Positions 3,801 to 62,621 of a stretch of DNA of 64,000 bases are shown piece after piece (position 1 is the first letter of the stretch; each line of letters starts with the position of its first letter). The position numbers and the translations under genes were made by a program. The DNA is from Mobula hypostoma (Eukaryota), in the NCBI RefSeq assembly GCF_963921235.1, contig NC_086097.1:95234001-95298000 (forward strand), written 5' to 3'. The notes under the pieces were generated by a model. The model did no database searches, was not told the origin of the DNA, and saw only the letters and a list, made by a program, of their open reading frames with translations.

Positions 3801-4571
3801 CAACTAATTAATTCTACCTCTAGGTATGGTTCACACTTTCAGCACATCTCATGCACTATAACACGGTCATTGTTACTCTGGAAGTATAAGCAGCAGCTGC
3901 ACTGCACAAAGTGAGCTTCTACAAAGAACAATGAGATAACGGAAAGACTTTGAGCTTGAAACTAACACTTTTTCCTCTTCACAGGTGCTGACTGGCCTGC
4001 AGAGCATTTAGACCATTTACTTGCTTTACTTCAGACTTCCAGCAGTTGCAGTGTTGTCCTTCACCATGGAAAAAAATAACCTATTTACTTGTTTTCAAGA
4101 TATTGCCATGGCATCTTTTACAGCTACCTGATCGAGATGATAGATGCTCAATATCTCGTCAGATGAGGACTGCATCTTCAACAGTGCAACACTCTTTCTG
4201 CCTGGGATGGGTCTTAACACTGATTCAGAAGTGCTATCCAGGGATGTAATTGGACAGTACTTGCCACCCATGGACCCAACCCACCTAAACTCACCAAGGC
4301 CTAACATGGTCCAATTTCACGGACCTTCTGCGCTAATGAAGCAGACATCTAAGATGCAATGAGCTCTCAGCAGTGATTCAGCCTCACATGACATGGTATC
4401 ACATTAATGATCTTTGATTGAGGAAAGAAAAAGGAGAGGTTTATCTTCCGTCAATGCTGGAAGATTTTTAAAATAGGTTTTAAGTGTCTCTGATATTCAT
4501 TATGTGATGCATATAATTAATAAATAAATAGGATGAAATAAACATTCATAATGCAATAAAAGCTAAAGTAA

Positions 4572-5113
4572 GAGAAAATCTGCAGATGCTGGAAATCCGA
4601 GCAACACACACAAAATGCTGGAGGAACTCAGCAGGACGGGCAGCATCTATGGAATAGAGTACAGTCAATGCTTTAGGCCGACCCTTCATCAGGACTGGAG
4701 AAAGAAAGATGAGGAGTCAGGATTAGAAGGTGGTGGGGGGGGGGAGGGGAGAAAGAAACACAAGGTGATAGGTGAAGCTGGGGTGGGGTGTGACGTAAAG
4801 AGCTGGGAAGCTGATTGGTGAAAGAGATAACAGGCCGGAGAAGGTGGGGGGTGGATCTTATAGGAGAGGATAGAAGGCCATGAAAGAAAGAAAAGGGGGA
4901 GGAGCAGCAGAGGGGAGGTGATGCCCGGGTGAGGAGACAAGGTGAGAGAGGGAAAAGGGGATGGGGAATGGTGAAAAGGGGGGGGGGGGCTTACCTGAAG
5001 TTCGAGAAATTGATGTTCATGCCATCAGGCTGGAGGCTACCCAGATGGAATATAAGGTGTTGCTCATGCAACCTGTGTGTTACCTCATCGCAACAGTAGA
5101 AGAGGCCATCAAC
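4572..5113 (-). mobile_element. Penelope-like element 3' end (left arm of composite)
   Basis: PLE terminus TCTGCAGATGCTGGAAAT...AAAATGCTGGAGGAACTCAGC, purine-rich UTR on this strand, end of GIY-YIG region homologous to 49700-49795. Confidence 0.9.
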
Positions 5114-6045
5114 TGAAACTCTCAACTCTCTTAAATTCAGCAGTGTTGCTGTAAACAGGAGCATGTGCAATCCCCCTTCGCTTCCTGAAGTCAGTGACCA
5201 GCTCCATTTGGTATGTTGAAATTGAGGAAAAGATTGTTGTCATGACAACATGTCACTAGCTCTCTACCACCTTCCTGTATTCCAATCATTGTTATTTGAG
5301 ATATGACCCATACATTGATATCATCTGCAAACTTGTCGATGAAGTTAGAGCAAAATCTGGCCATGCAGTCGTGAGTGTCGAGACAGTAGAATAGGGGCTG
5401 AGGATACAGCCTTGTGGGCACTAGTGTTGAGGATAATCATGGTGGATGTCTTGCTGCCTACCCTTACTGTTTGCACTCTATGGGTCAGGAATCCACCATT
5501 AGTGTGGAAGTGAGTTTACTTGGAATTGTGGTATTGAAGATGGAGCTAGACTCAATAAATAGTGGTCTAACATGCGTGTCTTTACTGTCCAGAAGGTGCA
5601 GAGGTAAGTGAGGGGCAGGGAGATGGCCCCTGCTGTAAACCTGTTTCGGTGGTTGGTGAATTGCTGTTGGTCATGGTTGTCATGGAGGCCGCAGTTATTG
5701 TGCGCCATGATCAGTCTCTCAAAGTACTTCATGATGGTGGATGTCAGAGCCACTGGGCGGTAGTCATTAAGGAACTTAATAACTGCAGTACCATGATACC
5801 TAATGACTAACATTAAGTTGCCATGGTTGAAATCAGCAAGCTGAGTACAGACTGGGAATGAAGTTTTGGTCCTTCTGATCTTCACTGAGTCTGCAGTGGT
5901 ATAACCCACTGAACTTTAGTTTAGATGTAAACACCTCTTAATCTTTGCTGACACCTTTGGTGTGGTACTGCAGGAGGATGACAGTAGTCACCTCCTTATG
6001 ACTTACACTGAGACCCCTGTGCTCATTTTATAAGTGGTTGCAAAA
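5114..6045 (-). repeat. Inverted copy of ~7063-8019 (unique DNA plus Rex1/Babar fragment)
   Basis: Reverse complement match; ORFs 5499..5909(-) and 7201..7614(+) translate almost identically; ~22-nt deletion in this copy near 5503. Confidence 0.95.
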
Positions 6046-6049
6046 CGTA

Positions 6050-6498
6050 GTCATCAACATGTCAGTCGATAGCCTCCTCCACTGTCGCGATGAGGCCATA
6101 CTTAGGTTGGAGGAGTAACACCTTATATTCCATCTGGATAGCCTCCAACCTGATGTCACGAACATCGATTTCTCAAACTTCTGGTAATGGCCCCCCCCTC
6201 CACCACCCTCTCTCACTTCATCACCCGCCCATCAGCTCCCTTTCGTGCTCCTCCTTCTTTCTCCAACCCTGGACCCCTTTCACCAATCAACTTACTACCT
6301 CTTTACTTCCACCCCCCCCCACAGACCGGTTTCACCTATCACTTTGTGTTTCTCCCTTCCTCCTCCCACCTTCTAACCCTGACTCCTCATCTTTTTTCTC
6401 CAGTCCTGCTGCAGGGTCTCGGCCGAAAACGTCAACTATACTCTTTTCAATAGATGCTGCCTGCCCTGCTGAGTTCCTCCAGCACTTCGTGTGTGTTG
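6050..6498 (+). mobile_element. Penelope-like element 3' end (right arm of composite)
   Basis: GIY-YIG C-terminal coding remnant, CT-rich UTR, terminus GCTGCCTGCCCTGCTGAGTTCCTCCAGCAC...GTGTGTTG. Confidence 0.9.
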
Positions 6499-7337
6499 AC
6501 TGTACTAAAGTAAACATATTTAAAATTACACACGTTCTCTGTTTCCAGGTCCAGAGTCTCCAATGCAGGATTAGTGAGGTAAAATACGAAGTATTCTCAG
6601 CAAATCTGGACTCAACCACTGGAGCAAGCCTTGGACCTCAAGTAGGAATGGCTAAATGTCAGCAATTTCTCTTGGAAGCAATGGCTCTACTGACAATATT
6701 TGGCCCGAAGTGACTCTGAAACAGTTTGGATATCCCCAAGGATGTTATAGTAGATGAAAATCTTTTGACATACAGTCACGGTTAGTCTCTAGGTTAAAAA
6801 GGGCAGCCAATACGTGGTCGGCAAATTTACCCAGTGACCACTGAGAATATTCTTTTAGGAGATATACTTGCACATTCAAATGAAATGAAGTATGAGGAGA
6901 ACATGGGGAAATAGCACTGAGTTAGATCAGTCATGAATGCAGAGCAGATTCAAAGGGACAAATTTCCTATTTCCACACTTTCCTCCCATATTTCTTAATA
7001 ATTATCCTATTTTTAGCTGGGGAGAGCTTATTTTATTTCTTTAATATCCTTTAGTGAGATCCTTTGAAACCACTTGCAAAATGAGCACAGGGGCCTCAGT
7101 GTAAGTCATAAGGAGGTGACTATTGTCGTCCTCCTGCAGTACCACACCAAAGGTGTCAGCAAAGATTAAGAGGAGGTGTTTACATCTAAACTAAAGTTCA
7201 ATGGGTTATACCACTGCTGACTCAGTGAAGATCAGAAGGACCAAAACTTCATTCCCAGTCTGTACTCAGCTTGCTGATTTCAACCATGGCAACTTAATGT
7301 TAGTCGTTAGGTATCATGGTACTGCAGTTATTAAGTT

Positions 7338-8670
7338 CCTTAATGACTACCGCCCAGTGGCTCTGACATCCACCATCATGAAGTACTTTGAGAGACTGGT
7401 CATGGCGCATAATAACTCCAGCCTTCCTGACAACCATGACCAACAGCGATTCACCGACCCCCGAAACATGTCTACAGCAGGGGCCATCTCCCTGCCCCTC
7501 ATTTACCTCTGGACCTTCTGGACAGTAAAGACACCTATGTTAGACCACTATTTACTGAGTCTAGCTCCATCTTCAATACCACAATTCCAAGTAAACTCAC
7601 TTCCACATTCTTAGACCTGAAACTCAACACTAATGGTGGATTCCTGACCCATAGAGTGCAAACAGTAAGGGTAAGCAGCAAGACATCCACCATGATTATC
7701 CTCAACACTAGTGCCCACAAGGCTGTATCCTCAGCCCCTATTCTACTGTCTCGACACTCACGACTGCATGGCCAGATTTTGCTCTAACTTCATCGACAAG
7801 TTTGCAGATGATACCACTGTAGTGGGCCATATCTCAAATAACAATGATTGGAATACAGGAAGGTGGTAGAGAGCTAGTGACATGTTGTCATGACAACAAT
7901 CTTTTTCTCAATTTCAACATACCAAATGGAGCTGGTCACTGACTTCAGGAAGCGAAGGGGGAATGCACATGCTCCTGTTTACAGCAACACTGCTGAATTC
8001 AAGAGGCTTGAGAGCTTCACATTCCTAGGAGTGAACGTCACCAATAGTTTGTCCTGGTCCAACCGTATAGAAGCCATGACCAAAAAAATTCACCAGCGCC
8101 TCTACTTCCCCAGGAGGCTACAAAAATTTAGCATGTCCTCTGAACTTCACCAGTTTTTTATCAATGCTCCATAGCTTCCAAGCAGATGCAATACAACTTG
8201 GTATGGTAATTGCTCTATCCATGACTGCAAAAAGTTGTGGACACATGTCTCCTCTCCATGGACTCTGTGTACATTTCTGACTGCCTTAGTAAAGCAGCTG
8301 GCATAATCAAAGATCCCACCCACCCTAGATCTCCTCATTCTCCCTCCCATCAGGCAGAAGATACAAAAGCCTGAAATCACATATCATCAGGTTCATGGAC
8401 AGTTTCTACGCCACTATTAAAAGACTATTGAACAATCCTCTAGTACGAAAAATGCACTCGTGACCTCACAATCTACCTTGCCATGGCCTTGCACCTTCTG
8501 GCCTACCTGCACCACACTTCCTCTGTAACTCTAACACTTCAATCTATACTCTGCTATTGTTTTACCTTGTACTACTTCAATGAACTGCTGTCATACATTG
8601 ATCTATACGAAACGTGTACCGGACGAGTTTTTCACTGTACCTCGGTACATGTGACAATCATGAATCAATT
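7338..8670 (+). mobile_element. 5'-truncated decayed Rex1/Babar LINE (RT to 3' tail)
   Basis: NDYRPVALTSTIMKYFERL, KFADD, ELVTDFRK, FTFLGVNVTNSLSW; tail TTTCACTGTACCTCGGTACATGTGACAAT. Confidence 0.85.
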
Positions 8671-9039
8671 TACCATCTGCCAGCACAACAACTGACCATA
8701 GGTCCTCGGGCTGGAATGGAAGAGACCATGCCATCAGCAAAAAGTGACTTCCCTCACCTCATCTGATAATCTGCAACAGCACCCAAAGAGGGAAGACATT
8801 GCATTTACTGCAAGGGTTTGGAACACTAATCTCTCACGTGTGAAGACCTTCAGAGTTACTCACACCCAGTGGACAGAGTGCCAGTTTCACCTGACTGTTT
8901 ACACAGCTCTAACCTAAAAGACCAGCACATTCTTCCTCTCACTTGAGCAGAAGACACAGTACAGTTAATGGAGTATTCCAAATAGAAAAGGAAGTAAGCT
9001 ATTAAAGTATGCATAATTTCCCCCAGTGATTCCTTCTGC

Positions 9040-9394: not shown

Positions 9395-10812
9395 AAAGTT
9401 CTAAAGTTCAAAGTAAATTTATTATCTAAGTACATATATGTCACCCTGAGATTCCTTTCCTGTGAGCATATTCAGTAAATCCAAGAATAGAATCAATGAA
9501 AGACCGCACCCAACAAACAACCAAAGTGCAAAAGATAACAAACTGTGTTAATACAAAAGAAAAAAAGAAATAATAATGATAAAACATATAAGTAAAAAAT
9601 ATCGAGAACATGAGATGAAGAGTCCTTGAGAGTGAGTGCATAGGTTGAAGGAACAGTTCAGTGATGGGACAACTGAAGTTGAGTGAAGTTATCCTCACTG
9701 ATTCAAGAGCCTGATGGTTGAGGGATAATAACTGTTCCTGAACCTAGTGGCAAGGGTCCAAAGGCTCCTATACCTTCTTCCTGATGTCAGTAGCAAGAAG
9801 AAAGCATAGCCTATCTGGAGGGCATCCTTCGTGGTGAATGCTGCTCTCCTGCAACAGTGCTCCATGTAGATGTGCTCAATGGTGATGAGTGCTTTGCCCA
9901 TTGTGGACCAGGCCATATTCACCACTTTTTGTGGGATTTTCCATTCAAGGGCATTGGTGTTTCAATACCAGGCTGTGATGCAATCAGTCAATATACTCTC
10001 CACCAAACATCTATAGAAGTTTTTTAGATGTCATGCCAAATATTTGCAAACTTCTAAGGGAGTAGAGGTGCTGCCACGCCTTCTTTGTGATCGTACTTAC
10101 GTGCTGGGCCCAGGACAGATCCTCCAAAATGATTACACAAAGAAATCTTCAGTTGCTGATCCTCTTTATCTCTGAACCCTCCACAATGAGGACTGGCTCA
10201 TGAACCTCTGACTTTCTTCTTCTTAAGTCAATAATCAGCTCCTTGGCCTTGGTGACATTGAGTGAGAGGTTATTGTTGTAGCACCACTCAGCCAGATTTT
10301 CAGTCTCCTTTCTATATGCTTATTTGTCACCACCTTTAATTCAGCTAACAACAGTGGTATCATCAGCAAACTTAATTTGCTTTTGGAGCCTCATGGTCAT
10401 AAGTATAAAGCGAGTAGAGCAGGAGGCAAGCCCATGTCCTTGTTATGCACTTGTGCTGATGGAGATTGTGGAGGTGATGTTGTTGTTAATCTGAACTGAC
10501 TGGGGTCTGCAGGTGAGGAAATGGAGGATCTAATTGCACAAGGAGGTATTGAGGCCAAGGTTTTGAAGTTTATTTATTACTTCTGAGAAAATGAAAGTAT
10601 TGAATGCTGAGCTACAGTCAATAAAAAGGGTCCTGATGTAAGCATCTTTGCTGTACAGATAGTCTAGGACTGAGTGAAAAGCCAATGAAATGGCATCTGC
10701 TGTTGTACAGGTAGGCAAATTGTACAAATCCAAGTCACTTTACAGGCAGAAGTTGATATACTTTATTACCAACCTCTCAAAGCACTTCATCACAGTGAAT
10801 ATAAATGCTACT
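9395..10812 (-). mobile_element. Rex1/Babar LINE, 3' part (host of the Gypsy insertion)
   Basis: TADAISLAFH...FIDCSSAFNT (10530..10733), C-terminal SGRRYRSL...TRFRNSYYPSTIRLLN, tail at 9395-9425. Confidence 0.85.
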
Positions 10813-11554
10813 TGTCATGTGACCAGCAACAATAGAATTGAGTCAGGTTTTATAAACAAACATAAACACTTATTAAACTCTGCTCAACAATAGCAAAAAG
10901 TATTCAAACGACTAACTTAACTGGAAGTTAACTGCTATACGGCAACTCTGGAACAGTTCTTAAAGTGGTAAATTCGAACACAGTCTTTAAGTGGTAACTT
11001 CAAAAGTCCAAGTGATTTACACAGTCAATAAGGAGAGACTTCTCTGGAAATGGATTTCTTCGAAGACGTGACATTACTGCTGATTCTGTCCAAAGGATTC
11101 ACGATGAAGGAAATAAAATGGCTTCAAGGAACTGACCTTTTCCTGGCGAATGAACACTGCAAAAACCTTCCTGACTTACAGGGGTTATCTCAGATGCAGG
11201 CCATTGCTGAACAAAGATTCAATAAGGTCGATCGCCGAATGACACCGACTTTACTCAATCCTTCAGGTTAGTAAGATCTTCACTCTCCAATACTAGGCTT
11301 ACAAAAGAAAGTAAAACTCCACTTTAAAACGAAACTGCGTCATGAGACGAATACGCAGCATAACGGAGTAACTGACAAATTAAACAACGAATCAACTGCG
11401 TAACAACCTGTTGAGAAAATATCATCACGTGGCCTTACACTGGCGGGAAAATTACATCATCCCACCATCACAAGACTATTACATCATGCTCACAAGATAC
11501 TCAATTACATCATGGTCATAAGACAGTCACAAGATACCCACGAGGTATGTAACA
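10813..11554 (-). repeat. 3' LTR
   Basis: TGTCA...TAACA termini; direct repeat of 17014-17792. Confidence 0.95.
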
Positions 11555-11563
11555 CCTCTCTCC
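11555..11563 (-). other. Polypurine tract
   Basis: GGAGAGAGG on the minus strand abutting the 3' LTR. Confidence 0.8.
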
Positions 11564-11744
11564 AAAAAGGGAAAATTTTAGTCTTTTATGAGCAAAATTT
11601 TAACAACTGTTTACAAAAAAAATACAATTGTATAAAATATTCAACATACACAATATACACAGTATTATGATACAGAACCTTGCAAACTAATATACAGTAG
11701 GAGTGTTACAAATGTTAAAATACCACTCCATTTTCATTGTACTT

Positions 11745-14700
11745 TCAACATCTAGATAGACAGTCAGCAACCACATTATCTTTACCTTTAATATGAGTTA
11801 TCAAAATATTATACTCCTGCAACATCAAACTCCAATTCAATAACCTTATATTTTTGTTTTTCATCTTACTCAAAAACAGTAGCGGATTATGATTGGTGTA
11901 AACTATGAGTGGTTTTTGAATTGTATCGACATACACATCAAAATGTCGTAAAGCCAAAACAAGAGATAATAATTCCTTTTCTATGGTTGAACAATTTCTT
12001 TGATGCAAATTAAATTTCTTCGAAAAGTAAGGTACTAGATGATCAACCTCATCACCCTCATCCCTTTGAAGTAACACTGCTCCTGCAGCCTCATCACTAG
12101 CATCTACAGCTAATGAAAATGGTTTTTCAAAGTCAGGTGACCTGAGCACAAGTTGATGACATAGCGTAGTTTTCAATTTATCAAATGCCTCCTGACAAGA
12201 CTCTGTCCAAACAAACTTTTCACTTTTCTTCAAGAGATTAGTTCATGGAAGGGCAATGTCAGCAAAATTCTTACAAAATTTATGGTAATATCCTACCATT
12301 CCAACGAATCTTCTGAGAGTCTTTTTACCAGTTGGAGTGGGTACCTCTAAAATTGCCTGAACTTTTGCCTAAACAGGAGCTAACTTACCTTGAACCACAA
12401 CACACAGTGGCATGATCAAATTCACTTTTAGCTAAGTTAATAGTTAAGTTAGCTTTTGAAAGCCTTTCAAATAGCTTCTCCACCACAGTAATATGTGCTT
12501 CCCGAGTATCATTTCCTGTAACTAAATCATCAATATAAGCATCTGTATCTTTTAACTCATGAATCACAGAATTAATCATCCGCTGGAAAGTACCTGGTGC
12601 ATCCTTCATCCCAAAGGGAAGAGCATTATATTCATATAACCCAGATGGGGCTACAAATGCAGAAATGTCTCTACCTCTATCCGTCAATAGAACACACCAA
12701 TAACCTTTTAACAAATAAATCTTTGTAAGGAACGTTGCTTTTCCCACTTTATCCACATAATCATCCACTCCAGGGATTGGCTATGCATCAGTTTTTGTCA
12801 CAGCATTCACCTTCCTGTAATCAGTACAAAACCGAATACTATTGTCTGGCTTAGGCACCATAACACATAGTGAACTCCAATTCAAATTAGAAGGTCTAAT
12901 AATATTAATCTCTAACATATACTTAATTTCTTGTTCAGCAATTTCACATTTTTCCATGTTCATCTGATATGGATGTTGCTTTATGGGTTTGGCATCTCCA
13001 ACATCTACACCATGTGAAGCTACTGTGGTTCTTTTAGGAACATCTGGAAATAAATCCCTATATTTAAAAATTAACTGCTTCATCTGGTGCCTCTGCTCTG
13101 GCTGTAAATGAGCCAATTTCTCATCAATATTTTTCAGAATTGTCGAGTTTGGTAATCTGGCAGTAATAATGTTGGGCTTAAAATGAGTTTCAGATGAATC
13201 ATCCATTAAGTTCCTAGTGGGATCAGATTCATTATTATTGACCACAACTGTCATAGTAGCAGACTGTTTCTCATAATATGGTTTTATCGTATTGATATGA
13301 CAAAGCTATGTTGGCCTTCTTCGATCTGGTATTTTTATCACATAATCCACATCATTAACTCTAGATATAACCTCATAAGGACCATGAAATTTAGCTTGTA
13401 AGGGGTTCGTTTGCATCGGGAAAAGATCCAACACCTTATCTCCAGGCTTAAATGACCTCATTCTAGTTTCCTTACCATACCAAGTTTTCATTTTCTCCTT
13501 AGCTGATTTTAAATTTTCCCTAGCTAAGCTACAAGCTTTATGCAATCTTTCCTTAAATTTTAAAACATGATCCAGCAAATTAATATGTACCTCTTCATTA
13601 ATCCACTGTTCTTTTAACAAGGCCAAAGGTCCTCTAACTCTATGCCCAAACACAAGTTCAGAAGGACTAAAACCTAGGGATTCCTGCACTGTCTCCCGTA
13701 CTGCAAATAGAAGTAAATGTATGCGCTCATCTCAATCATTTTCATTTTCCACACAATACATCCTAATCATTGTTTTGAGGGTAGAATAGAACCTCTCCGA
13801 AGCTCCTTGTGATTCTGGATGGTATGCAGACGAGGTAATCTGTTTTGCTCCCAGTTTATAAACTATCTGCTAGAACAATCCAGACATAAAATTACTACCT
13901 TTATCAGACTGTATTTCCTTAGGCAACGCAAAGTAAGTAAAGAATTTTATAAGAGCCTTTATTACAGTTTTAGCCGTTATATTCCTAAATGGTATTGCCT
14001 CTGGAAACCCAGACGCTGTGCACATGATGGTCAGCAAATATTGATGGCCAGTTTTGGTTTTTGGCAATAGGCCTACACAATCCATAATAATTTTGGAAAA
14101 TAGTTCACCAAATGCGGGAATAAATTGCAGTGGGGCCATTGGATTAAATTGATTAGGTTTACCCACAATCTGACAAGTATGACACGTTTTGCAAAATGTC
14201 GCCACATCTTTTCTTAAACCAGGCCAGTAAAAATGTTTAAAAACCTTGTTCACAGTTTTCTTCACACCTTGATGGCCACCCAAGGGCATACTATGAACCA
14301 TAGTTAATACCTCATTCCGATAAACTTTAGAAACTACTACCTAGTGAAAAACCTTCCATTCATCACTTGCAGGAATTGTAGGTGATCTCCACTTCCTCCC
14401 TTCTCAAAATAATATCCTACCGGCACCTTCTCAATTTCACTATCTGGAAGACCTTGTTCCTTTAATTTGATAATCTCAGGGTCTTTATTCTGCTCTGTTA
14501 TCATCTCCTTCCGAGACAGAGACAAATCTTCATGGTCAGACTTACTACAAGAATCTTGATCAAACAATAAAGGTAAGAAAGTTTCTGACACATCCTCAAA
14601 ATTCAAATCCTGAGTTGAACAGTCATGGGTAACAGACCCATCCTGCACATCAATCTTTCTAGCCATAGCTCAGGTTACAACACAGGAGAAATCTGTGTTA

Positions 14701-15083
14701 GAATCCATCTTTGGTTCCTCAGAGATGGGCTTTATTGTCAAATGCACTTCAGGAAAAACTTGTCCATCTGCTAAGTCATTTCCTAACAATAGAGAAACAT
14801 CATTCACAGGTAAACTGGGTTGTAGTCTTACTTTAACAGGTCCTGTAACTAACCCTGACCTTAAATTTACTTTATGCAAAGCACTCCCAACACCTCGTAT
14901 ATAGTTTACCTCCCCAATGTCAGACTCATCACTAAACTTCAGAACACTGTCTAACATAAGTGACTGAAAAGCTCCAGTATCCCTAAGGATTTTTATTGGC
15001 ACTGGAGTGGATCCCTCTTTCAAGGATACAAATCCTTCGGTTATATCCTTTCTTAACTTGGTCAGACTCTGACAAAACTTCAT
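11745..15083 (-). pseudogene. pol: Disrupted pol: protease, integrase, reverse transcriptase, RNase H
   Basis: ILRDTGA protease (14670..15083); HSMPLGGH...FYWPG...CHTCQ and MDCVG integrase (13306-14301); FCTDYRKVN, PFGM, YIDD RT (12385-13254); LAVDAS, EKELL, NVVADCLSR RNase H (11745..12233); several stops and frameshifts. Confidence 0.92.
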
Positions 15084-15099
15084 TTGTATTTATCGAACC

Positions 15100-16886
15100 C
15101 TGTGGATTTATAGGTGTTTCAATATATGTTGCACACAAGCATCTGGGACTGCCTCCTTCTCTTTCTTCCTCAATCGGAAACAGTTAGCTATTACGTGACC
15201 AGGTTTCTTACAATAATTACAAATAGGACCAAAATGTCTTTCCTTCACATGTTTCCTTTCATCCTTACCTTTCTCACTAACTTCTGATTTAATTTCTGGT
15301 TTACCTTGACTCTCTGTGCTATTTTTCCTTTTAAAAGTTCTACCTGGAGGAAATTTACTCTTGTGGATTAAAGCATACTCATCTGCTAATTATGAGGACA
15401 CACGTCCTCGTTTACTGTCATTTAGAAATGCATGCATTAAAAAATGATACAATGTTCCTCCAGAATGATATCACAAGAAACACAGGACAAACCAAGACTA
15501 AAACTGACAAAAACCACACAATTATAATATATAGTTACAACAGTGCAAAGCAATACCATAATTTGATTAAGAGCAGACCATGGGCACGGTAAAAAAAAGT
15601 CTCAAAGTCCTCATAGCGTCATCATCTCACGCAGATGGTAGAAGGGAGAAACTCTCCCTGCCATGAACCTCTAAGCGCCGCCAACTTGCCGATGCAGCTC
15701 CACTGGAACCAGCCAACCGCAGCGGACTCTGAGTCCGTCAGAAAACTTCAAGCCTTCGACCAGCCTTCGTCACCAAGCACCATCCTCTGCCAAGGGCTTC
15801 GACCCCGCCCTGGTCGCTGAGCAACAAGCAAAGCCGAGGACTCGGGGCCTTCCCTTGTGGAGATTTCTGACCACACAGTAGCAGCAGAAGCGAAGCAGGC
15901 ATTTTAGAGGTTTCACTAGATGTTCCTCCGTGCTCTCATGTCCGTCTCCATAAAATCAGGATTGTGCACGCACCCTACTTGACAGATAACAGATATCACC
16001 ACCGAAGTGGCTGCTGGGAGCTGCGTCGCGCCGTCATCTTCTCCTCTTTAGCAGACTCCTGCAATGTAGCAGTGTCCCTCTCATTTAAGTATGTCCTTAC
16101 TTCAACAGAGATGCTCCTTTTAAATTCCTCCATTAAAATCAAATCTTCTAATTTATTATACTCCCCATTCACATTTTTAGAGGAAACTCATCGCTCAAAA
16201 CACACAGATTTACCATAGGCAAATTCCACGCAAGTTTTTTCCACAGATTTCTTCAAATTTCTTAATCTTTCTCTATAAGTTTCTGGAACCAGTTCATATG
16301 CTTTCAGTATATGCTGCTTCACAATATCATGATCAAGTATTTGCTCAGCAGTTAAAGCTGTATAAACTTGTTGTGCCTTACCTTTAATTACACTTTGTAA
16401 CATCACTGGCCATTTCTCTTTCATTAAATGGAGGAGCCAATATAACTTCCTGACTAGCAACAAACTGTTTCCAGAACCAGGGGACTGATTCTCCATGGTT
16501 AATTTCTCCATTGCTAGCTCAAATTCCCTCTTTTTATCTGCTTCTCTAGCTTCAAATTCCTTCTGTTTATCTGCTTCTTTAGCTTCGAATTCCCTTATCG
16601 TAATGGCTTCTCTTTCGGCCACCTCCGCTTTAAGTAATTCCAACATTATCTGTTCACTATGTAATTGCATCTCTAGATTACTCATTGGAAACATATCTAA
16701 CACTTCTTCATCAAAACCACCCGACTCTTTATAGTATGCCGCAATTTTTCTCTGAATTACTGGCTTTGTTGTAACCTTCGTAATTCCTTTAAGGTCCAAC
16801 CTTTTAGCAATCTCAGATACATCACCCTTTTTCGCCTTCGCTAATAATTCCGGGTCTGGCGATGCCTTAAACTCGTCAATATTCAT
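15100..16886 (-). pseudogene. gag: Disrupted gag with SCAN-like capsid region and CCHC zinc knuckle
   Basis: WPVMLQSVIKGKAQ...KAYELVPETYRERLR (16188..16886); CNYCKKPGHVIANC read at ~15180-15222; interrupted by 15390-16046. Confidence 0.85.
15390..16046 (-). mobile_element. Non-autonomous LINE-derived element inserted in gag
   Basis: gag frame LQESAK/LADEY rejoins across it; GC-rich head GAGGAGAAGATGACGGCGCG; Rex1/Babar-like tail ending GAGGACGTGTGTCCTCATA. Confidence 0.75.
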
Positions 16887-16991
16887 TGCTGCCGAATATC
16901 ACCCACAGACCAATCAAACAAAAGAATCGAGTATTTCCCTTTTCCAAATCAGATTGATAATTAAACAAGCACTTAAGCTCAAAATCGGAAC

Positions 16992-17009
16992 AATCCAAAT
17001 GAGCCCCCA
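16992..17009 (-). other. Primer-binding site, tRNA-Pro type (degenerate)
   Basis: TGGGGGCTCATTTGGATT 4 nt downstream of the 5' LTR; canonical Pro PBS is TGGGGGCTCGTCCGGGAT. Confidence 0.8.
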
Positions 17010-17013
17010 ATTT

Positions 17014-17792
17014 TGTCACGTGACCAGCAACATGAATATAGAATTGAGTCAAGTTTTATAAACAAACATAAACATTTATTAAACTCTGCTCAACAACAGC
17101 AAAAAGTATTCAAACGACTAACTTAACCGGAAGTTAACTGCTATACGACAACTCTGGAACAGTTCTTAAAGCAGTAAATTCGAACACAGTCTTAAAGTGG
17201 TCAATTCAAAAGTCCAAGCGATTTACACAGTCAGTAAGGAGAGATTTCTCTGGAAACGGATTCCTTCGAAGACGTGACGTTACTGCTGATTCTGTCCAAA
17301 GGATTCACGACGAAGGAAATAAAACGGCTTAAAGGAACTGACCTTATCCCTGGCGAATGAACACCGCACAAACCTTCCTGATCTTACAGGGGTTATCTCA
17401 GATGCAGGCCACTATTTCTGAACGAAGATTCAATAAGGTTGATCCAGTATTAAACCGCTGAATGACACCAACTTTACTCAATCCTTCAGGTTAGTAAGGT
17501 CTTCACTCTCCAATACTAGACTTACAATAGAAAGTAAAACTCCACTTTAAAACAAAACTGTGTCATGTGACGAATACGCAGCATAACGGAGTAACTGACT
17601 AATTAAACAACGAATCAACTGCGTAACAACAAGGGTTTCCCGTTATATACCTGTTCAGAACGTGTCATCACATGACCTCACACTGGCAGGAAAATTACAT
17701 CACCCCACCATCACAAGACCATTACATCATGCTCACAAGATACTCAATTACATCATGGTCATAAGACAGTCACAAAATACCCACGAGGTATG
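17014..17792 (-). repeat. 5' LTR (outer 5 nt missing)
   Basis: Matches 10813-11549; minus-strand TATATAA at ~17643-17649 and AATAAA at 17075-17080. Confidence 0.95.
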
Positions 17793-41510: not shown

Positions 41511-42550
41511 GATAGAAATATGCTGACTCCTTGTGCATAAGTATTGCAACATTCTCTGGCTCTCACAATATCCTCAGGATTGATTGCATATCTTTGAAGT
41601 GGAGTTGAAACTAATTACAGCCACTCACCACCCATAACTGTGCCTGGGCTGAGAGTCAAAAAGTACCATCAAAATAATGATGAAGGAAAATCCAAACAGA
41701 AAATGCAGATGTTGGAGATCTGTAATAAAAACGGAAAACACTGTAAACATTCAGCAGGTCAGGAAGTGTCCATGGAAAAAGAAACAGAAGTACGGCTTCA
41801 GGTCTGAGACCTTTTGCAAGTCTAACACAGGGTGTGAAACATTCACTGTGTTTCTCCTGCTACAGATGCTGCAGACCTGCAGAGTGTTTCTAACATTTTT
41901 GTTTTTATCTGAGGTGGAAAAAATCTCCTTTTGATGACATATTAGAATTCGCTCTCAACAAGAGGTCCGTTCTGTTTGTGTGTCATGTGGCATGAACATG
42001 TATTTACTTAAGTCTAAGAAATACAATCTATCAACATCAACAATACTGCCAAAATGAGTAGAGGATTCAATCAGAGTAATTTTGCTCCAAAGTCAAAACA
42101 GGCTGAATTCATTCACCTTAAAGTCATGGGGTCGAGAGAGAGGATGTTCTATGCAACTTGTGCAAGAAAAGTACATAATCAGACAATACAGTTCCCTGCA
42201 CAGAGGTAAATCACGTTTCTGCCTAAGCCTGTACCAAATCAGGGTGTTACCATGTGCTGAATTGGCTTGGGAACCGGCAATGCCAAGAAATTCAAGAGTT
42301 ATGAAAGCAAAGCAATCATGTCTGATTTTATGGTGTGTACATAAAGGCTCACAATTTCTGCAGTTTTCTCTGGAGTATCCCTTTCATTCTTACATTATCC
42401 TTTAATTCCCCAGAACATTGCTGTTTGATTAATCTTCTTCAGTTCTGTGGATCTAACTCCACTTCAAAGATATGCAATCAATCCTGAGGATATTGTGAGA
42501 GCCAGAGAATGTTGAAATATTTATGCACAAGGAGTCAGCATATTTCTATC
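41511..42550. repeat. 96-bp inverted repeat pair (41511-41606 and 42455-42550)
   Basis: GATAGAAATATGCTGACTCC...GAAGTGGAGTT is the near-perfect reverse complement of 42455-42550. Confidence 0.95.
41693..41909. mobile_element. Old Penelope-terminus fold-back
   Basis: Left AAATGCAGATGTTGGAGATC...CAGCAGGTCAGG versus right ACAGATGCTGCAGACCTGC...CATTTTTGTTTTTAT. Confidence 0.6.
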
Positions 42551-47270: not shown

Positions 47271-47324
47271 CTCAACTACATCATTCTGGATATGTCCTGT
47301 GTAAAAAAAAATGTTGCCCTTTAA

Positions 47325-47600
47325 ACATACACAAGATGCCGGAGGAACTCAGCAGGTCAGGAAGCATCTATGAAAAAGAATAAATAGTGAAAGTTTCTGG
47401 CTGAGACCACCCTCCTCCCCACACCTGTTTATTCTAATTGGGGCCTCCTCTACCTTCCTTTCCTGTGCTGATAAAGAGTCACAGCTCAAAACATCGATTG
47501 TCTATTCCCTTCCATCGATGTTGCCTGATCTGCTGAGCTCCTCCAGCATTTTAATGCATTATTCTGGATCTCCAGCATCTGTTGAATCTTGTGTTTATAA
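47325..47600. mobile_element. Penelope-terminus fold-back, older
   Basis: Inverted PLE termini, short left and long right; degenerate TSD GTTGCCCTTTAA (47313) / GCTGTCCTTTAA (47601). Confidence 0.7.
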
Positions 47601-48458
47601 GCTGTCCTTTAAGTTTTTATTAAATCTTTCTCTTCTTACCTTAACCTATGCCTCCAGTTCTAGATTTTCCAATGCTGGGGAAAAATACTGAGTGCACTCA
47701 TCCAATCCATGCCTTTTATAATTGTTACACCTCTGAAAAAATCACTCTTGAATACCTATGCTCAGAGGAAAAAAAATCCTATCCAGTCCAAGCTCTCCCT
47801 ATAACTCACTCTCTCAAACACACCTTTTCTCCACTCTTTCCAGTTTAATAACACTGTTCTTGTAGCAGGGTGACCAAAACTGAACACAACATTTCAAGTG
47901 CTTCAACAGCCACCAGTAAAGGCAACAAGATTGGATTGATAACTCAGCCAAAGGAGAACATTTTCAGGAAAGCAGTACTTTTCCGGGACTATGCTAGTGT
48001 TTGCTTCGATAATCCATCCACACTTGGTCTTCCCTGCATTCCACAAATGCAGTCAACACTTAACTTCCTCCTCTTTAGGGTAGCCTCGCATAGTCAATAA
48101 ATACTGATATTGCCAGCAGCATTCTCACTTCTTTTATTTCCTGTTATTATTTCTGATTTCCAGCACCTGAAGTTTTCTGCTTGTGGATAAATCAACTAAA
48201 ATTGGGTGCATTCATTCTAAAGCAAGTTCTTTATAGAAAGAGATCAAAATTATGCACCTAACAATGGCAAGGCACTCCTTTTATTCTAATGAATAATAAC
48301 AATATCAGGATTTGTACTGGGCACATCACGTTTTGTAGTCATGGTTCCACTAAAAAATTCTTGGTCAAATGCAGCAAAGGTTAAATAAAGAGTAAAGCGC
48401 CACACATAAAAGTTGCTGGTGAACGCAGCAGGCCAGGCAGCATCTCTAGGAAGAGGTG

Positions 48459-48496
48459 CAGTCGACGTTTCAGGCCGAGACCCTTCGTCAGGACTA
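48459..48496 (-). ncRNA. Minimal hammerhead ribozyme motif
   Basis: UAGUC-CUGACGA-AGG(GUCUCGG)CCU-GAAA-CG-UC-GACUG. Confidence 0.8.
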
Positions 48497-49468
48497 ACTG
48501 AAGGAAGAGTGAGTAAGGGATTTGAAAGTTGGAGGGGGAGGGGGAGGGGGAGATCCAAAATGATAGGAAAAGACAGGAGGGGGAGGGATGGAGCCAAGAG
48601 TTGGACAGGTGATAGGCAAAAGGGATAAGAGAGGATCATGGGACAGGAGGTCCAGGAAGAAAGACAAGGGGTGGGGGGGGGATCCAGAGGATGGGCAAGG
48701 GGTATATTCAGAGGGACAGAGGGAGAAAAAGGAGAGTGAGAGAAAGAATGTGTGCATAAAAATAAGTAACAGATGGGGTACGAGGGGGAGGTGGGGCATT
48801 AGCGGAAGTTAGAGAAGTCAATGTTCATGCCATCAGGTTGGAGGCTACCTAGACGGAATATAAGGTGTTGTTCCTCCAACCTGAGTGTGGCTTCATCTTT
48901 ACAGTAGAGGAGGCCGTGGATAGACATGTCAGAATGGGAATGGGATGTGGAATTAAAATGTGTGGCCACTGGGAGATTGCCCCTTCTCGCAGTTCCTTCG
49001 TGTCCGCCGCATCCACTCTCAGGATGAGGCTTTTCATTCTAGGATGAGGGAGATGTCTTCCTTTTTTAAAGAAAGGGGTTCCCTTCCTCCACTATCAACT
49101 CTGCTCTTAAATGCATCTCCCCCATTTCACGTACATCTGCTCTCACTCCATCCTCCCGCCACCCCACTAGGAATAGGGTTCCCCTGGTCCTCACCTACCA
49201 CCCCACCAGCCTCCGGGTCCAACATATTATTCTCCGTAACTTCCGCCACCTCCAACGGGATCCCACCACTAAGCACATCTTTCCCTCCCCCGCTCTCTCT
49301 GCATTCCGCAGGGATCGCTCCCTACGCAACTCCTTTGTCCATTCGTCCCCCCCATCCCTCCCCACTGATCTCCCTCCTGGCACTTATCCGTGTAAGCGGA
49401 ACAAGTGCTACACATGCCCTTACACTTCCTCCCTTACCACCATTCAGGGCCCCAAACAGTCCTTCCAG

Positions 49469-49795
49469 GTGAGGCAACACTTCACCTGTGAGTCGGCTGG
49501 GGTGATATACTGCGTCCGGTGCTCCCGATGTGGCCTTTTATATATTGGCGAGACCCGACGCAGACTGGGAGACCGCTTTGCTGAACATCTACGCTCCGTC
49601 CGCCAGAGAAAGCAGGATCTCCCAGTGGCCACACATTTTAATTTTACATCCCATTCCCATTCTGACATGTCTATCCACGGTCTCCTCTACTGTAAAGATG
49701 AAGCCACACTCAGGTTGGAGGAACAACACCTTATATTCCGTCTGGGTAGCCTCCAACCTGATGGCATGAACATTGACTTCTCTAACTTCCGCTAA
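49469..49795 (+). pseudogene. Penelope GIY-YIG endonuclease domain (ORF C-terminus)
   Basis: VIYCVRCSRCGLLYIGETRRRLGDRFAEH...LEEQHLIFRLGSLQPDGMN. Confidence 0.92.
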
Positions 49796-50094
49796 TGCCC
49801 CACCTCCCCCTCATACCCCATCTGTTACTTATTTTTATACACACATTCTTTCTCTCACTCTCTTTTTTCTCCCTCTGTCCCTCTGAATATACCCCTTGCC
49901 CATCCTCTGGGTCCCCCCCCTCCCCGCCCTTGTCTTTCTTCCCGGACCTCCTGTCCCATGATCCTCTCTTATCCCTTTTGCCTATCACCTGTCCAGCTCT
50001 TGGCTCCATCCCTCCCCCTCCTGTCTTCTCCTATCATTTTGGATCTCCCCCTCCCCCTCCAACTTTCAAATCCCTTACTCACTCTTCCTTCAGT

Positions 50095-50132
50095 TAATCC
50101 TGACGAAGGGTCTCGGCCTGAAACGTCGACTG
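50095..50132 (+). ncRNA. Minimal hammerhead ribozyme motif (weakened stem I)
   Basis: UAAUC-CUGACGA-AGG(GUCUCGG)CCU-GAAA-CG-UC-GACUG. Confidence 0.7.
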
Positions 50133-50649
50133 CACCTCTTCCTAGAGATGCTGCCTGGCCTGCTGCATTCACCAGCAACTTTTATGTGTGTTGCTTGAAT
50201 TTCCAGCATCTGCAGAATTCCTGTTGTTTGAAGAGTAAAGCTCCCTTTGTTATGTCTTATCAAACATTTCTGAAACTGTGTACAGCAGCTTACATAATAT
50301 CCCCCTTGATACACAATTGAGACATTCTTTTTATTACAAATACAAGCCATTGTAGTGGTTTTTCTCAAATGGCATCTGAATTTATTGGGACCATAGGGAA
50401 TTTACAGGGAATTTTATGATCCATTCCCAATCAAATCATTCCAACAAGCCACAGAAAGATAACTGTAATTAGATCAACAAAACAATCTGCTGGAGGAACT
50501 CAGCAGGTCAAGGAGCATCTGTGGAAGCTTTCATCAATCTGGTTATATATAAATCTCAAATTAACAGCACAAAGAGTCTCAAAGTCACTGCATCACCTAG
50601 TTCCTCTTTCCAGAGTATCTTTCTATCAGTTATTTCAATCCAGAGCATC

Positions 50650-51155: not shown

Positions 51156-51581
51156 GTAATGTTCACTCTCAGTTATTGTTTCTCAACAAGCATTTAATGG
51201 TATTAACATCTGTTGTAATCTCTAGCATTATTGGCCACCACCTGCGTGTCTGCCACACTCCTGGTAACTTAAAGAGACTGGAACTGAGTTGCTTGCTCAT
51301 AAACATTTTTTAGAGAAAGCAATAAGACGGGAACATTGACTCCCCTCACTCTGCCCCTGAAATCCCAGCAATCCAATTATGTAGAAACACATAGGCATTG
51401 CCTTGGAAGGTAAATCCAAATGAAAAAATATTTTGAATGGCAGAAGGATAACAATTGAGATTTTAATGATGTATACCATGATTTATGGAACATAGCTGTT
51501 GAGACTATTCCAGAGACTTATAGATTGCCTATAGTGCCATGATGAAAAATTGATACCACCAATGAAAGTATAATTAATCTC

Positions 51582-53070
51582 TCAAACCTGAGGAAATCTG
51601 AAGATGCTGGAAATTCAAGCAACACACACAAAATGCTGGTAGAATGCAGCAGGCCAGGCAGCATCTCTAGGAAGAGGTACAGTCGAAGTTTCGGGCCGAG
51701 ACCCTTTGTCAGGACTAACTGAAAGAAGAGATAGTAAGAGATTTGAAAGTGGGAGGGGGAGGGGTGGAGCCAAGAGCTGGACAGGTGATAGGCAAAAGGG
51801 ATACAAGGCTGGAGAAGGGAGAGGATCATGGGACAGGAGGCCTAGGGAGAAAAAAGGGGGAGGGGAGCACCAGAGGAAGATGGAGAGCAGGCAAGGAGTA
51901 ATTGTGAGAGGGACAGAGAGAGAAAAAAGGTGGGGGGGGAGAGATAAATAAGTAAATAAATGGGATGGGGTAAGAAGGAGAGGAGGGGCATTAACGGAAG
52001 TTAGAGAAATTAATGTTTATGCCATCAGGTTGGAGGCTACCCAGACAGAATAGAAGGTGTTGTTCCTCCAACCTGAGTGTTGCTTCATCTTGACAGTAGA
52101 GGAGGCCATGGATAGACATGTCAGAATGGGAATGAGACGTGGAATTAAAATATGTGGCCACTGGGAGATCCTGCTTTCTATGGCAGACAGAGTGTAGGTG
52201 TTCGGCGAAACGGTTTCCCAGTCTGCGTCGGGTCTCACCAATATATAGAAGGCCCCCCTGGGAGCACTGGACGCAGTATATCACACCAGTGGACTCACAG
52301 GTGAAGTGTCGTCTCACCTGTAAGGACTGTCTGGGGCCCTGAATAGTGGTGAGGGAGGAAATGTAAGGGCAGGTGTAGCACTTGTTTCGCTTACAAGGAT
52401 AAGTGCTAGGAGGGAGATCAGTAGGAAGGGATGGGGGGTACGAATGGACAAGGGAGTCACGTAGGGAGCGATCCCTGCAAAAAGCAGAAGGTGGGGAGAA
52501 GAAAAGATGTGCTTGGTGGTGGGATCCCATTGGTGGTGGCGGAAGTTACGGAGAACTACATGTTGGACCCAGAAGCTGGTGGGGTGGTAGGTGTGGACAA
52601 GGGGAACCCTATCCCCAGTGGGGTGGTGAGAGGACAGGGTGACAGCAGATGTGCGTGAAATGGGAGAGACGCGTTTGCGAGCAGAGTAGATGGTGGAGGA
52701 AGGGAAGCCCCTTTCTTTAAAACAGGAAGACATCGCCTTTGCCCTGGAATGAAAAGCCTCATCCTGAGAGCAGATGCGGTGGAGACGGAGGAATTGCGAG
52801 AAGGGGATGGCATTTTTGCAAGAGACAGGGTGGGAAGAGGAATAGTATAGGTAGCTGTGACAGTCCATAGGCTTATAATAGACATCAGTATATAAGCTGT
52901 CTCCAGAGATAGAGACGGAAAGATCAAGAAAGGGGAGGGAGGTGTCGGAAATGGACCAGGTAAATTTGAGGGCAGGGTGAAAGTTGGATGCAAAGTTAAT
53001 GAAGTCAACGAGCTCAGCATGCATGCAAGAAGCAGCGCCAATGCAGTTGTTTATGTAGCGAAGGAAGAGT
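51582..53070 (-). mobile_element. Penelope element left arm (RT C-terminal half, GIY-YIG, 3' end with tail)
   Basis: FLRYINNCIG, LPFLDL, DVYYKP, IPFSQFLRL (52314..53090); VIYCVQC...YIGET (51991..52530). Confidence 0.93.
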
Positions 53071-55128
53071 GATCTCAGCGGGTCTACCAACCCCAGGCAT
53101 ATTCAAAACCCGGACTCCAGCGCCATCAATGCGGGTTCCAACGACAATGGACACCTTCAAACCGATTGTGCAGCCTCCAACTGCGACTCCAGCCTTGAAC
53201 TCCAGGCCGGGTCTTCACATGCTGCTATTGTGACTCCCGTCTCCCCTTCCCCCACCACTACTCTGCAACCCCGTCTCCCTCAGATCCCATCGTCAGGTCC
53301 TGGGCCCTCAGAGGCTCCATCTTCCTCTCACCCCAACCCTCCCCTCTCCACTGACACTACCAGCCTGCCCCTCCCCCCTCTGATCCCAGCTCTCATCTGT
53401 GCCAGGTCTTTACCATCCCCTCTGACCTTCAACTCTCTGAGGCAGAGCGCTCTGTCCTCAGTAAGGGCCTTACCTTTGTCCCCCTTCGCCCACACCTCAG
53501 CGAGTTCCGCATGTGGCATGACGCTGAACTCTTCTTCCGCCAGCTGAATCTTCGAGCCTACTTCTTCGGCAAGGACTCTCCCACCCCTACCGATGACCCC
53601 TTCTCCCGTCTTCAACCCTCCTCCTCTTCATGGACACCCTGCTGTGATCTTCTGCCTGCTCTGGATCTCTTTATTGCTAACTGCCGACGGGACATCAACT
53701 GTCTCGACTTCACCACACCTTGTTCCCATTCCAACCTCACTCCTTCCAAACGCTCTGCTCTCCACTCCCTCCGCACTAATCCTAACCTTACTATAAAACC
53801 CGCCGATAAGGGGGGATGCTTTTGTAGTCTGGCGTATTGACCTCTACCTTGCCAAGGCACAGCGACAACTCGCTGATACCTCCTCTTATTTATCCCTTGA
53901 TCATGACCCCACTAAGGAGCACCAGGCCATTGTCTCCCACACCATCTCCAGCCTTATCAGCTCAGGGGATCTCCCATCCACTGCCACCAACCTCATAGTT
54001 CCCACACCCCGACTTCCCGTTTCTACCTCTTACCTAAGATCCACAAACTTGCCTGTCCAGGTAGACCCACTGTCTCAGCTTGCTCCTGCCCCACCAAACT
54101 AATTTCTGCATACCTCGACACTGTTTTATACCCCCTTGTTCAATCCCTTCCCACCTATGTTCATGACACTTCTCACACTCTGAATTTTTCCAATGATTTT
54201 AAGTTCCCTGGCCCTACCGCTTTATTTTCACCTTGGATGTCCAGTCCCTATATACCTCCATCCCCCACCAGGAAGGTCTCAAAGCTCTCTGCTTCTTTTT
54301 GGATTCCAGACCTAACCAGTTCCCCTCTACCACCACTCTCCTCCATCTAGCGAAATTAGTCCTTACTCTTAATAATTTCTTCTTTGGCTCCTTCCACTTC
54401 CTCCAAACTAAAGGTGTAGCCATGGGCACCCGTATGGGTCCCAGCTATGCCTGCCTTTTTGTTGGCTTTGTGGAACAGTCCATGTTCCAAACCTATACTG
54501 GTATCCGTTCCCCACCTTTCCTTCACTACATTGACGACTGCATTGGCGCTGCTTCCTGCACGCATGCTGAGCTCGTTGACTTCATTAACTTTGCATCCAA
54601 CTTTCACCCTGCCGTCAAATTTACCTGGTCCATTTCCGACACCTCCCTCCCCTTTCTTGATCTTTCTGTCTCTATCTCTGGAGACAGCTTATCTACTGAT
54701 GTCTACTATAAGCCTACAGACTCTCACAGCTACTTGGACTATTCCTCTTCCCACCCTGTCTCTTGCAAAACTGCCATGCCCAGTGGCCACATATTTTAAT
54801 TCCACGGTCCCATTCCCATTCTGATATGTCTGTCCATGGCCTCCTCTACTGTCAAGATGAAGCCACACTTGGGTTGGAGGAACAACACCTTATATTTCGT
54901 CTGAGTAACCTCCAACCTGATGGCATGAACATGATTTCTCTAACTTCTGTTAATGCCCCCCCCTTCTTACCCCATCCCATTTATTTATTTATTTCCCCCC
55001 TTTTTTTTTTCCCCTCTCTCTTTTTTCCCTCTCTGTCCCCCTCACAATAACTCCTTGCCTGCTCTCCATCTTCCTCTGGTGCTCCCCTCCCCCTCTCTTT
55101 CTCCCTAGGCCTCCCATCCCATGATCCT
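53071..55128 (+). mobile_element. Penelope element right arm (N-terminus and RT, internal deletion at ~54778, truncated 3' UTR)
   Basis: LTIKPADKGG, DVQSLYTSIP, GVAMGTRMGPSYA, YIDD (54233..54799); jumps to the GIY-YIG end. Confidence 0.93.
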
Positions 55129-55764
55129 GATGAGAGAAGCTTATTCAACACAGATTATCTTTGAAACCTTTCCTTCTTTGCGGATAAGCACACTGAATTC
55201 ATTGGGGCAGAGGCACTTGTGTCTTCCTGAAGCATATTCTTTGAAGGTTAACATCACTTCTAGCTTACTGTACTCTGCTATATGCTATACAATAAAACTG
55301 TGTCCACAAATTTTCTGTTCTTACAACCTTTTAACCCAATTGATTTCAGTGAGACCTCTGTACTTCAGGAATTTGGTGTTGTTTTCCCTACAGGTGAAGT
55401 GCAGGTTCTCTGGGTTAGATACAGAAAGTACTATACACAAATGATGCTGAAAGATAAAATAAAAACACAACTGTTTCTTTCTATCCTGTCTCCATTCCAC
55501 TGAGACAAAGTTTTCAACCTTAATAAAGTACTCAATATGACCAGAAATTATCGAGATTTACACTCGTTAACTCCTGGATTTAAAGCTGTACACATGTTCA
55601 CTGATTGGTATTCTGGTGTACCCAAGATTTCCTTCAATACATTATAGACATCTGTAACTGCACCTACTTGTTTCTTTAAGACTCTCCTTATTCCGTACAT
55701 TTTTTGTGTTGCTCTGTGCTCAGGGTCCTTAACTCTTGTTAACTGACTCATGCATACTTTACGT

Positions 55765-62165: not shown

Positions 62166-62431
62166 AGGATTTGTTTGAAAAGGACGCATTGCTAGGATTG
62201 GAGAAGTAGGGTGGGGAGAGAGTAACAACACAAACCACTTCAGCCAAATATCTATTCCCTTGCCATATACTATGCACATACTTGGCCGCAAAGAGCATGC
62301 AATGTGATCAGAGATATAAAAAGGATGAGGTATTTGTAGAATTTCCACCAGCTGTGTCTTAATAGAACAAACTAAAATACACTTTTAAAATACCTCCGGA
62401 TTTTTGATTTCAGACATCACTGAAACATATT

Positions 62432-62621
62432 CACGAGGAAATCTGCAGATGCTGGAAATTCAAGCAACACACACAAAATGCTGGTGGAACGCAGCAGGCC
62501 AGACAGCATCTATAGGAAGAAGCACAGTCGACGTTTCCGGCCCAGACCCTTCGTTAGGACTAGTGCTTCTTTCTATGGCTGCTGTCTGGCCTGCTGCGTT
62601 CCACCAGCATTTTGTGTGTGT
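62432..62621. mobile_element. 190-bp Penelope-terminus hairpin with 15-bp TSD
   Basis: Inverted PLE termini; TCACTGAAACATATT at 62417-62431 and 62622-62636. Confidence 0.92.

Follow-up and report, generated by a model that had tools for sequence, protein, structure and literature searches.

An inverted copy of neighbouring DNA at the arm junction of a two-armed Penelope-like insertion in Mobula hypostoma

Structure of the locus

The window analyzed here is a stretch of 64,000 nucleotides of the Mobula hypostoma genome (contig NC_086097.1, positions 95,234,001 to 95,298,000). Near its start lies an insertion of a Penelope-like element (PLE), in which two outward-facing PLE 3' ends (the arms) enclose an inverted copy of nearby DNA (the cargo). 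The insertion is flanked by a 9-bp target-site duplication (TSD), CTAAAGTAA, with copies at 4563-4571 and 6505-6513, and an exact TSD match of at least nine bases was reached by 0.3% of mismatched-pair controls in the same lenient search. Self-comparison returned two inverted matches, 4602-5116 against 6062-6498 (PLE arms) and 5114-6044 against 7063-8019 (cargo and source). The layout and coordinates proposed in an earlier sequence-only reading by a model were thereby borne out. The features are as follows:

4563..4571, + strand: TSD, left copy (CTAAAGTAA), whose final two bases coincide with terminal bases of the arm
4572..5113, - strand: left PLE arm, with the end of the endonuclease open reading frame (ORF), the 3' untranslated region and a tail of ~30 nt; 5'-truncated
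5107..5116, + strand: left junction, with TGA (5114-5116) common to arm and source, and CATCAAC (5107-5113)
5114..6045, - strand: cargo, an inverted copy of 7062-8019, 96.1% identical, with a 22-bp deletion; made up of unique DNA and a portion of an older long interspersed nuclear element (LINE)
6046..6056, no strand: filler of ~11 bases forming the right junction; matches elsewhere reach 8 bases at best, the chance level
6057..6498, + strand: right PLE arm, tail-less, 5'-truncated, with internal deletions
6505..6513, + strand: TSD, right copy, preceded by six bases (6499-6504), either untemplated or a decayed end of the arm
7062..8019, + strand: source of the cargo; begins ~550 bp past the insertion, is unique as far as ~7325 and from there on is a decayed LINE extending past 8019
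7399..7472, + strand: candidate unconverted tract, with 11 of the 36 copy/source differences (15%) and changes on both sides

The arms are 86% alike (59 differences in 423 bases); the left one is ~8% away from its subfamily majority and the right one ~12% from its own. Only the left arm carries the ~30-nt tail, and it reaches 5116 if the shared TGA is counted. The truncation point of the right arm lies within ~13 bases of that of the left, and the arm ends are placed near-symmetrically around a self-complementary octamer. Because CATCAAC recurs directly 3' of the cargo, the left junction is open to two readings: TGA can be read as microhomology between left arm and source, or CATCAAC as a small duplication left by a later cut of a direct arm-arm join.

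The reverse complement of 5114-6045 agrees with 7062-8019 at 896 of 932 aligned bases (96.1%), the copy being shorter by 22, 3 and 1 bp. The large local palindrome proposed earlier is an inverted repeat with a spacer, its two halves, copy and source, being 1,018 bp apart. The proposed position of the source (~550 bp beyond the insertion) and its make-up of unique DNA and older LINE sequence were both recovered. The unique part (7063-7330, 268 bases) has two matches in the 3.48-Gb genome, namely source and copy, in a search that skipped common words. This genome-wide search of the unique part found no third copy of the cargo or cassette, and the notion of a mobile, cargo-carrying cassette is not supported. 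The LINE part is multi-copy, with 82 paralog matches over 7324-8700 in the 1.26-Mb sample described below, and contains frames resembling a LINE reverse transcriptase (RT), while a Pfam search of these decayed frames gave no match. Its label Rex1, given in the sequence-only reading, is probably apt; what is confirmed is a multi-copy, RT-like LINE. A candidate exon at 6550-6790 was dropped, as it has stops in all frames and no Pfam match. The scan of 58 of the 170 candidate open frames in the window had an LTR (long terminal repeat) retroelement as its sole match. No sign of function was found at the locus, and the whole unit is now a dead scar.

Presence in related organisms

The copy-specific 22-bp deletion is spanned by contigs of the organism itself and of organism B, and the junction between copy and right arm is bridged by contigs of B (5983-6102) and C (5934-6119). 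Since copy and source also differ by 4%, mis-assembly is ruled out and the structure is confirmed as real. The left TSD junction is bridged in organisms B and D, and the right arm/TSD junction was found in E and F; D, E and F are 7-10% away from this genome. The empty allele that the sequence-only reading had proposed to look for was not found: every related organism with usable flanks had arm sequence at the site, reaching 54 bases into the left arm in D and starting 31 bases before the right TSD in E and F. Organism G has 30 arm bases at the site, which is below our bridging rule, and H has too little cover. The contig comparison reveals presence only, and regions of low cover were not counted as evidence. 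This applies to the unique part, over which E and F have almost no contig at either position and G has one of 480 bases, and to most of 5349-6785, where D lacks contigs. In all these cases, either no cargo or later deletions would fit.

In organism D, whose flanks are 8-10% distant, one contig has 7784-7903 in inverted orientation fused directly to 6786-7319. The inverted piece aligns with 7784-7903 at 110 of 120 bases (10 differences, no gap) and surpasses all 38 scored paralogs (at most 89%, many of them two bases longer). This is as expected if D inherited the cargo and then lost ~5349-6785, and it suggests that the cargo may be older than its 3.9% divergence implies.

The element family and its two-armed insertions

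L053 contains a long sister copy in which RVT_1 (E=6e-4) is followed by GIY-YIG (E=0.045, weak and below the cut-off); both arms match the end of its ORF at 79-82% (the left one at 82%). Judged from sequence, the locus is assigned to the inverted insertion type of endonuclease-bearing PLEs. Family copies end at two places ~30 bases apart, the corresponding loose ends here lying at 4570 and 4599-4601. Among the 40 best-scored of ~8,000-9,000 candidates there was no close sister for either arm, the best full-length matches being 83% and 78%. A search with the Rfam hammerhead models gave no match in the locus or in one young sister, and a putative decayed core resembling the motif was noted on visual inspection alone; the Rfam matches that did appear were discarded as hairpin artefacts.

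To place the locus within its family, we used a sample of 1.264 Mb made up of five blocks from five large contigs, one of which holds the window. A profile search of this sample returned 300 PLE 3' ends. Neighbouring ends less than 300 bp apart were outward-facing in 46 cases, compared with 10, 5 and 7 in the other orientations. Among the 72 outward pairs within 8 kb, a TSD was identified for 29 (four of these pairs being doubtful); 23 of the TSDs are exact at eight or more bases, compared with 1% in mismatched controls. Of the 29 TSD pairs, 27 combine a tailed arm with a tail-less one, two are unclear and none has equal status, whereas tail status was equal in 12 of the 43 outward pairs that lack a TSD. 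The scan for such ends suggested earlier was thus carried out on the sample instead of the whole genome, and two of the 29 pairs carry local cargo. Genome-wide, one exact pattern listed 961 young head-to-head junctions, and 15 of 22 that were retrieved have a TSD of at least eight bases. The 9-bp TSD of our locus is short for the family (mostly 12-16).

Twin priming is well supported, because the layout with one tail and a TSD is a family rule and both strands are extended in vitro by a PLE protein (PMC11167929; here and below, statements on cited papers refer to the sections drawn on). The earlier proposal that both strands of the cut were primed on PLE RNA therefore gains support. As the two-armed frame is ordinary for the family, the locus is less singular than it was first rated.

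The window holds further members of the family. At 48395-50228 lies a young two-armed insertion with arms 96-97% alike, a TSD of 11-14 bp, a tail-less left arm and PLE ORF in its middle. Two short head-to-head insertions lie at 62431-62627 (TSD of 15 bp, exact) and 47324-47589 (10 bp with one mismatch). At 51574-55133, long PLE pieces stand in inverted orientation; the right one has no 3' end, and ~680 bases between them fall outside the PLE library. The segments 48395-50196 and 51574-55128 had been candidates for host cargo and were rejected as PLE sequence.

Recurrence of local cargo at arm junctions

Sources were sought within 30 kb in the sample and within 2.5-4 kb for loci picked by pattern. 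Besides the present locus, the second TSD pair of the sample with a local copy is L111 (5116-5369), where a 14-bp TSD and near-identical arms surround 32 bases that match DNA 1.9 kb away at 100%. A further 64 distinct junctions were collected with patterns requiring an abrupt end of one arm, so that direct joins are omitted and the rate is overstated; seven host-like spacers among them were chosen by eye. Four of the seven have a clear local source. L145 holds 137 bp copied in direct orientation from 2.4 kb away, together with 37 bp of that site in inverted orientation. At L146, 144 bp in direct orientation come from 1.1 kb away and match this source at 97%, compared with 88% for distant copies of the family. 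The spacer of L147 is 168 bp of unique DNA and an inverted copy of a source at 0.58 kb, and that of L149, which lacks a TSD, is a 112-bp inverted copy of DNA 0.44 kb away. L151 has a weak local match of 23 bases only, and L148, which lacks a TSD, and L150 have no source within 2.5-4 kb. Altogether, five further junctions carry 32-168 bp from 0.4-2.4 kb away, placed exactly at the arm-arm junction.

The sample contains ~19 non-tandem local repeat pairs of at least 80 bp, and chance would supply ~0.03 cargo cases in 64 junction zones of 30 bp, compared with the four observed. At four young TSD loci, which apart from L111 were selected by exact patterns, arms and cargo are of equal age (6 differences in 349 bases and 6 in 464, respectively; p=0.77). 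For the three inverted cases the source begins at a distance of 0.44-0.58 kb, and for the three clear direct cases at 1.1-2.4 kb; this split of orientation and distance is a lead only. Many other junction inserts consist of additional arm sequence, which would fit a joining step that copies any DNA close by.

Several observations stand beside these counts. At L145 (3799-4194), the two PLE arm ends received extensions of 37 and 137 bases, both drawn from one strand of a single local site, before they were joined; this is a useful clue to the template. Many arm-arm junctions contain short iterated or folded-back arm pieces, which we take to resemble polymerase-theta scars. In the window, 41511-41606 and 42455-42550 form a 96-bp inverted duplication of unique DNA (98%, 849 bp apart) in PLE-free vicinity, which looks like a background repair-mediated duplication. 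In an upstream block, L009 (872-4222) and L011-L012 share an older inverted duplication of three or four segments 17-30 kb away (75-97%). It was considered as PLE-made and rejected, since the element sits inside the older duplication and interrupts it.

Origin of the insertion

The reading that we favor, with a probability of about one in two, is a two-armed PLE insertion whose junction was sealed at the time of insertion by copying 932 neighbouring bases, with copy and source later kept alike by conversion. The PLE protein would cut both strands nine bases apart, and each 3' end would prime complementary DNA (cDNA) on PLE RNA, one per start site, giving one tailed and one tail-less arm. The two cDNA ends, of the same polarity, would usually be joined via a few matching bases. 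Here, the cDNA end of the right arm may have folded back onto its own flank 550 bases away and been extended by ~950 bases by a DNA-templated polymerase, for which host repair would be a likelier supplier than the PLE enzyme. The extended end would then have been released and joined to the left cDNA end through TGA. Finally, copy and source, an inverted repeat 1 kb apart, would have exchanged sequence in patches. Gene conversion between inverted repeats is reportedly established for sex-chromosome palindromes. The copy/source differences are clustered, with 11 of them falling within 80 columns (p=0.006) and a gap variance that is likewise significant (p=0.014), and within the cluster the divergence of 15% equals that of the arms, with derived bases on both sides. 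Together with the inverted remnant in D, this clustering favors capture at insertion followed by gene conversion.

Several results weigh against this reading. The arms differ at 59 of 423 positions (13.9%; 11.9% when CpG sites are left out), and the cargo differs from its source at 36 of 932 (3.9%; p=1e-10), and transversions in cleanly aligned parts follow the same course (11 in 241 against 11 in 932; p=0.002). With no close sister, and with arm junctions in organisms 7-10% away, the arms are truly old, and either later conversion or a later patch is required by the discrepancy. Conversion would need to hit the cargo yet spare the arms, themselves an inverted repeat at similar distance, and the longest identical run between copy and source is not significant (p=0.09). 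The D piece comprises 120 bases on one contig and could be an independent insertion. The near-symmetric arm ends at the octamer and the 7-base repeat around the cargo fit a later cut at a palindrome tip, the equal ages at the young loci are compatible with a patch soon after insertion, and at L145 the arm ends were extended on the top strand, not on the strand that resection of that side exposes. Of the earlier proposal that the gap was bridged from nearby DNA, the bridging itself thus recurs, with equal ages at four young loci, while its entry in the same event is put in doubt at this locus by 13.9% against 3.9%.

The strongest competitor, which we consider less probable yet a strong one, consists of two steps: the arms were first joined as a ~450-bp palindrome, and much later a break at its tip was patched by host repair with a local copy. 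The 3.5-fold age gap between arms and cargo would follow directly, as would the arm/TSD junctions in D (left), E and F (right) at distances exceeding the 3.9% of cargo and source, and CATCAAC on both sides of the cargo. Near-symmetric truncation was seen in only one of eight other credible TSD-bounded inserts above 500 bp, and repair-mediated duplications are common in vertebrates, with donors mostly within 5 kb (PMC2671141). However, the D contig suggests that the cargo predates that split; as the cargo would then be older than the split, conversion is needed anyway and the clock is weakened. Moreover, the young sister loci have no age gap, a 7-base repeat near both junctions arises by chance in ~2% of cases by a rough estimate, and the TGA match must be a coincidence.

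An RNA template, with the PLE RT jumping from PLE RNA to a nascent host transcript of 7063-8019 in a single step, appears improbable. The geometry would permit it, rotifer PLEs capture host sequence (PMC3846280), and L145 used a strand that resection would leave unexposed. In contrast, each of the six clear sources is found 0.4-2.4 kb away from the cut, with both sides and both orientations represented, which resembles donors of DNA repair (peak ~1.2 kb, PMC2671141), and no host gene was identified at the locus among the open frames scanned.

More improbable still is a single step at the apparent age of the cargo, without conversion, in which the arms stem from two old PLE transcripts that had already diverged. 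It would directly explain 14% against 4%, and L1 insertions from two different RNAs are known (PMC11702581). However, no donor of ~96% was found for either arm among the best-scored candidates given above, partner arms are generally near relatives of each other, and seven derived bases are common to both arms.

An artefact of assembly, or a chance arrangement in which two PLEs inserted independently on either side of an inverted duplication unrelated to them, is very improbable: the TSD is short for the family and offset by six bases, and the sample does contain a PLE inserted into an older inverted duplication, but the TSD has a chance level of 0.3%, the tails are complementary, the cargo fills the arm gap to ~11 bases and the junctions are bridged in related organisms.

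Implications

The in vitro study of PLE insertion ends at first-strand synthesis (PMC11167929). If extrapolated, 29 two-armed insertions in 1.26 Mb correspond to roughly 80,000 genome-wide; with so many, the tail rule and the junction patches constitute a large natural record of the joining step. Rates between 1 in 28 (unbiased sample, this locus excluded) and 4 in 64 (picked by pattern) would give a few thousand local duplications at PLE junctions, with wide uncertainty, and the PLEs of this genome likely seed many small duplications of this kind. The present locus is the largest case of local cargo among those examined. A bolder generalization remains doubtful: PLEs would integrate by twin priming in which the start sites are divided in a fixed manner, and bridging of the cDNA ends by copying DNA from 0.4-2.4 kb away would be a regular branch of this pathway, performed by the PLE polymerase itself. 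In that case, the genome would owe to it a few thousand local duplications no larger than ~1 kb, inverted from ~0.5 kb and direct from 1-2.4 kb.

Other features of the window

A decayed LTR retroelement occupies 10812-17792 on the minus strand, with direct repeats at 10812-11549 and 17013-17792 (89%). Its gypsy-type integrase domains (13309-14340) lie upstream of the RT (12388-12780) and RNase H (11748-12242). This order matches the one named in the title of a paper on deuterostome gypsy-like elements with copia-like domain order.

Comparison with known systems

Inverted insertion units of endonuclease-bearing PLEs are known from Pen2a_Av and its relatives (PMC3846280; scheme in PMC8557442). 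Our locus shares with the Pen2a_Av units an inverted 5'-truncated copy, outward 3' ends, a tail of 30-40 nt at one end and a TSD of ~9 bp. Unrelated sequence between solo pseudo-LTRs (pLTRs) with TSDs is mentioned in PMC3846280 as well. There, however, captured host DNA lies between direct repeats or is relocated, and the sections drawn on describe no local inverted source, whereas here the cargo copies the target's own neighbourhood and sits at the head-to-head junction. The Adineta nonribosomal peptide synthetase (NRPS) case, in which a PLE mobilized cargo in trans to a new locus between direct pLTRs, likewise differs from our locus with its local cargo and inverted arms. Dualen elements with long TSDs (PMC9977147) were considered and set aside as a different structure.

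The PLE protein of the green anole Poseidon element cuts and extends both strands in vitro, with two start sites one tail apart (PMC11167929). Like our locus, that system involves an AT-rich target, and the protein is predicted to be a dimer; taken together, these properties account for two arms and a one-sided tail. The sections drawn on do not address the joining of cDNA ends or the capture of flanks, and the later steps are declared unvalidated.

Repair-mediated duplications in vertebrates mostly have donors within 5 kb, with a peak at ~1.2 kb, and the largest human proximal case measures 619 bp (PMC2671141). The present cargo resembles them in its donor 550 bp away, a single other location, the TGA microhomology with ~11-base filler and the absence of poly(A); they are sometimes chimeric (PMC2671141). 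Unlike these duplications, which interrupt existing elements at any break, those described here are concentrated at PLE arm-arm junctions, and 932 bp exceeds 619 bp. Whether this one, too, is a later insertion into a pre-existing element is answered with yes by the age gap, while the D contig and the patchy differences say maybe not.

Human L1 offers further parallels. Its growing cDNA may quit the RNA and copy nearby genomic DNA during integration (bioRxiv 10.1101/2024.08.27.596794), with templates typically below 250 bp and within 15 bp of the site; here, PLE arms replace an L1 body with poly(A), and the copy measures 932 bp and comes from 550 bp away. In L1 foldbacks, the cDNA end anneals back to the resected flank kilobases away (PMC11702581), as the cDNA end would do at our locus, but those events end as large rearrangements, whereas the present insert is bounded by a TSD and has an element 3' end on each side. 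No description of local templated cargo at PLE head-to-head junctions was found in a literature search whose scope left out most subscription papers, including older Penelope work. The ingredients, a PLE inverted insertion and a repair-mediated duplication, both have published precedents, and their combination at this locus is notable for its size.

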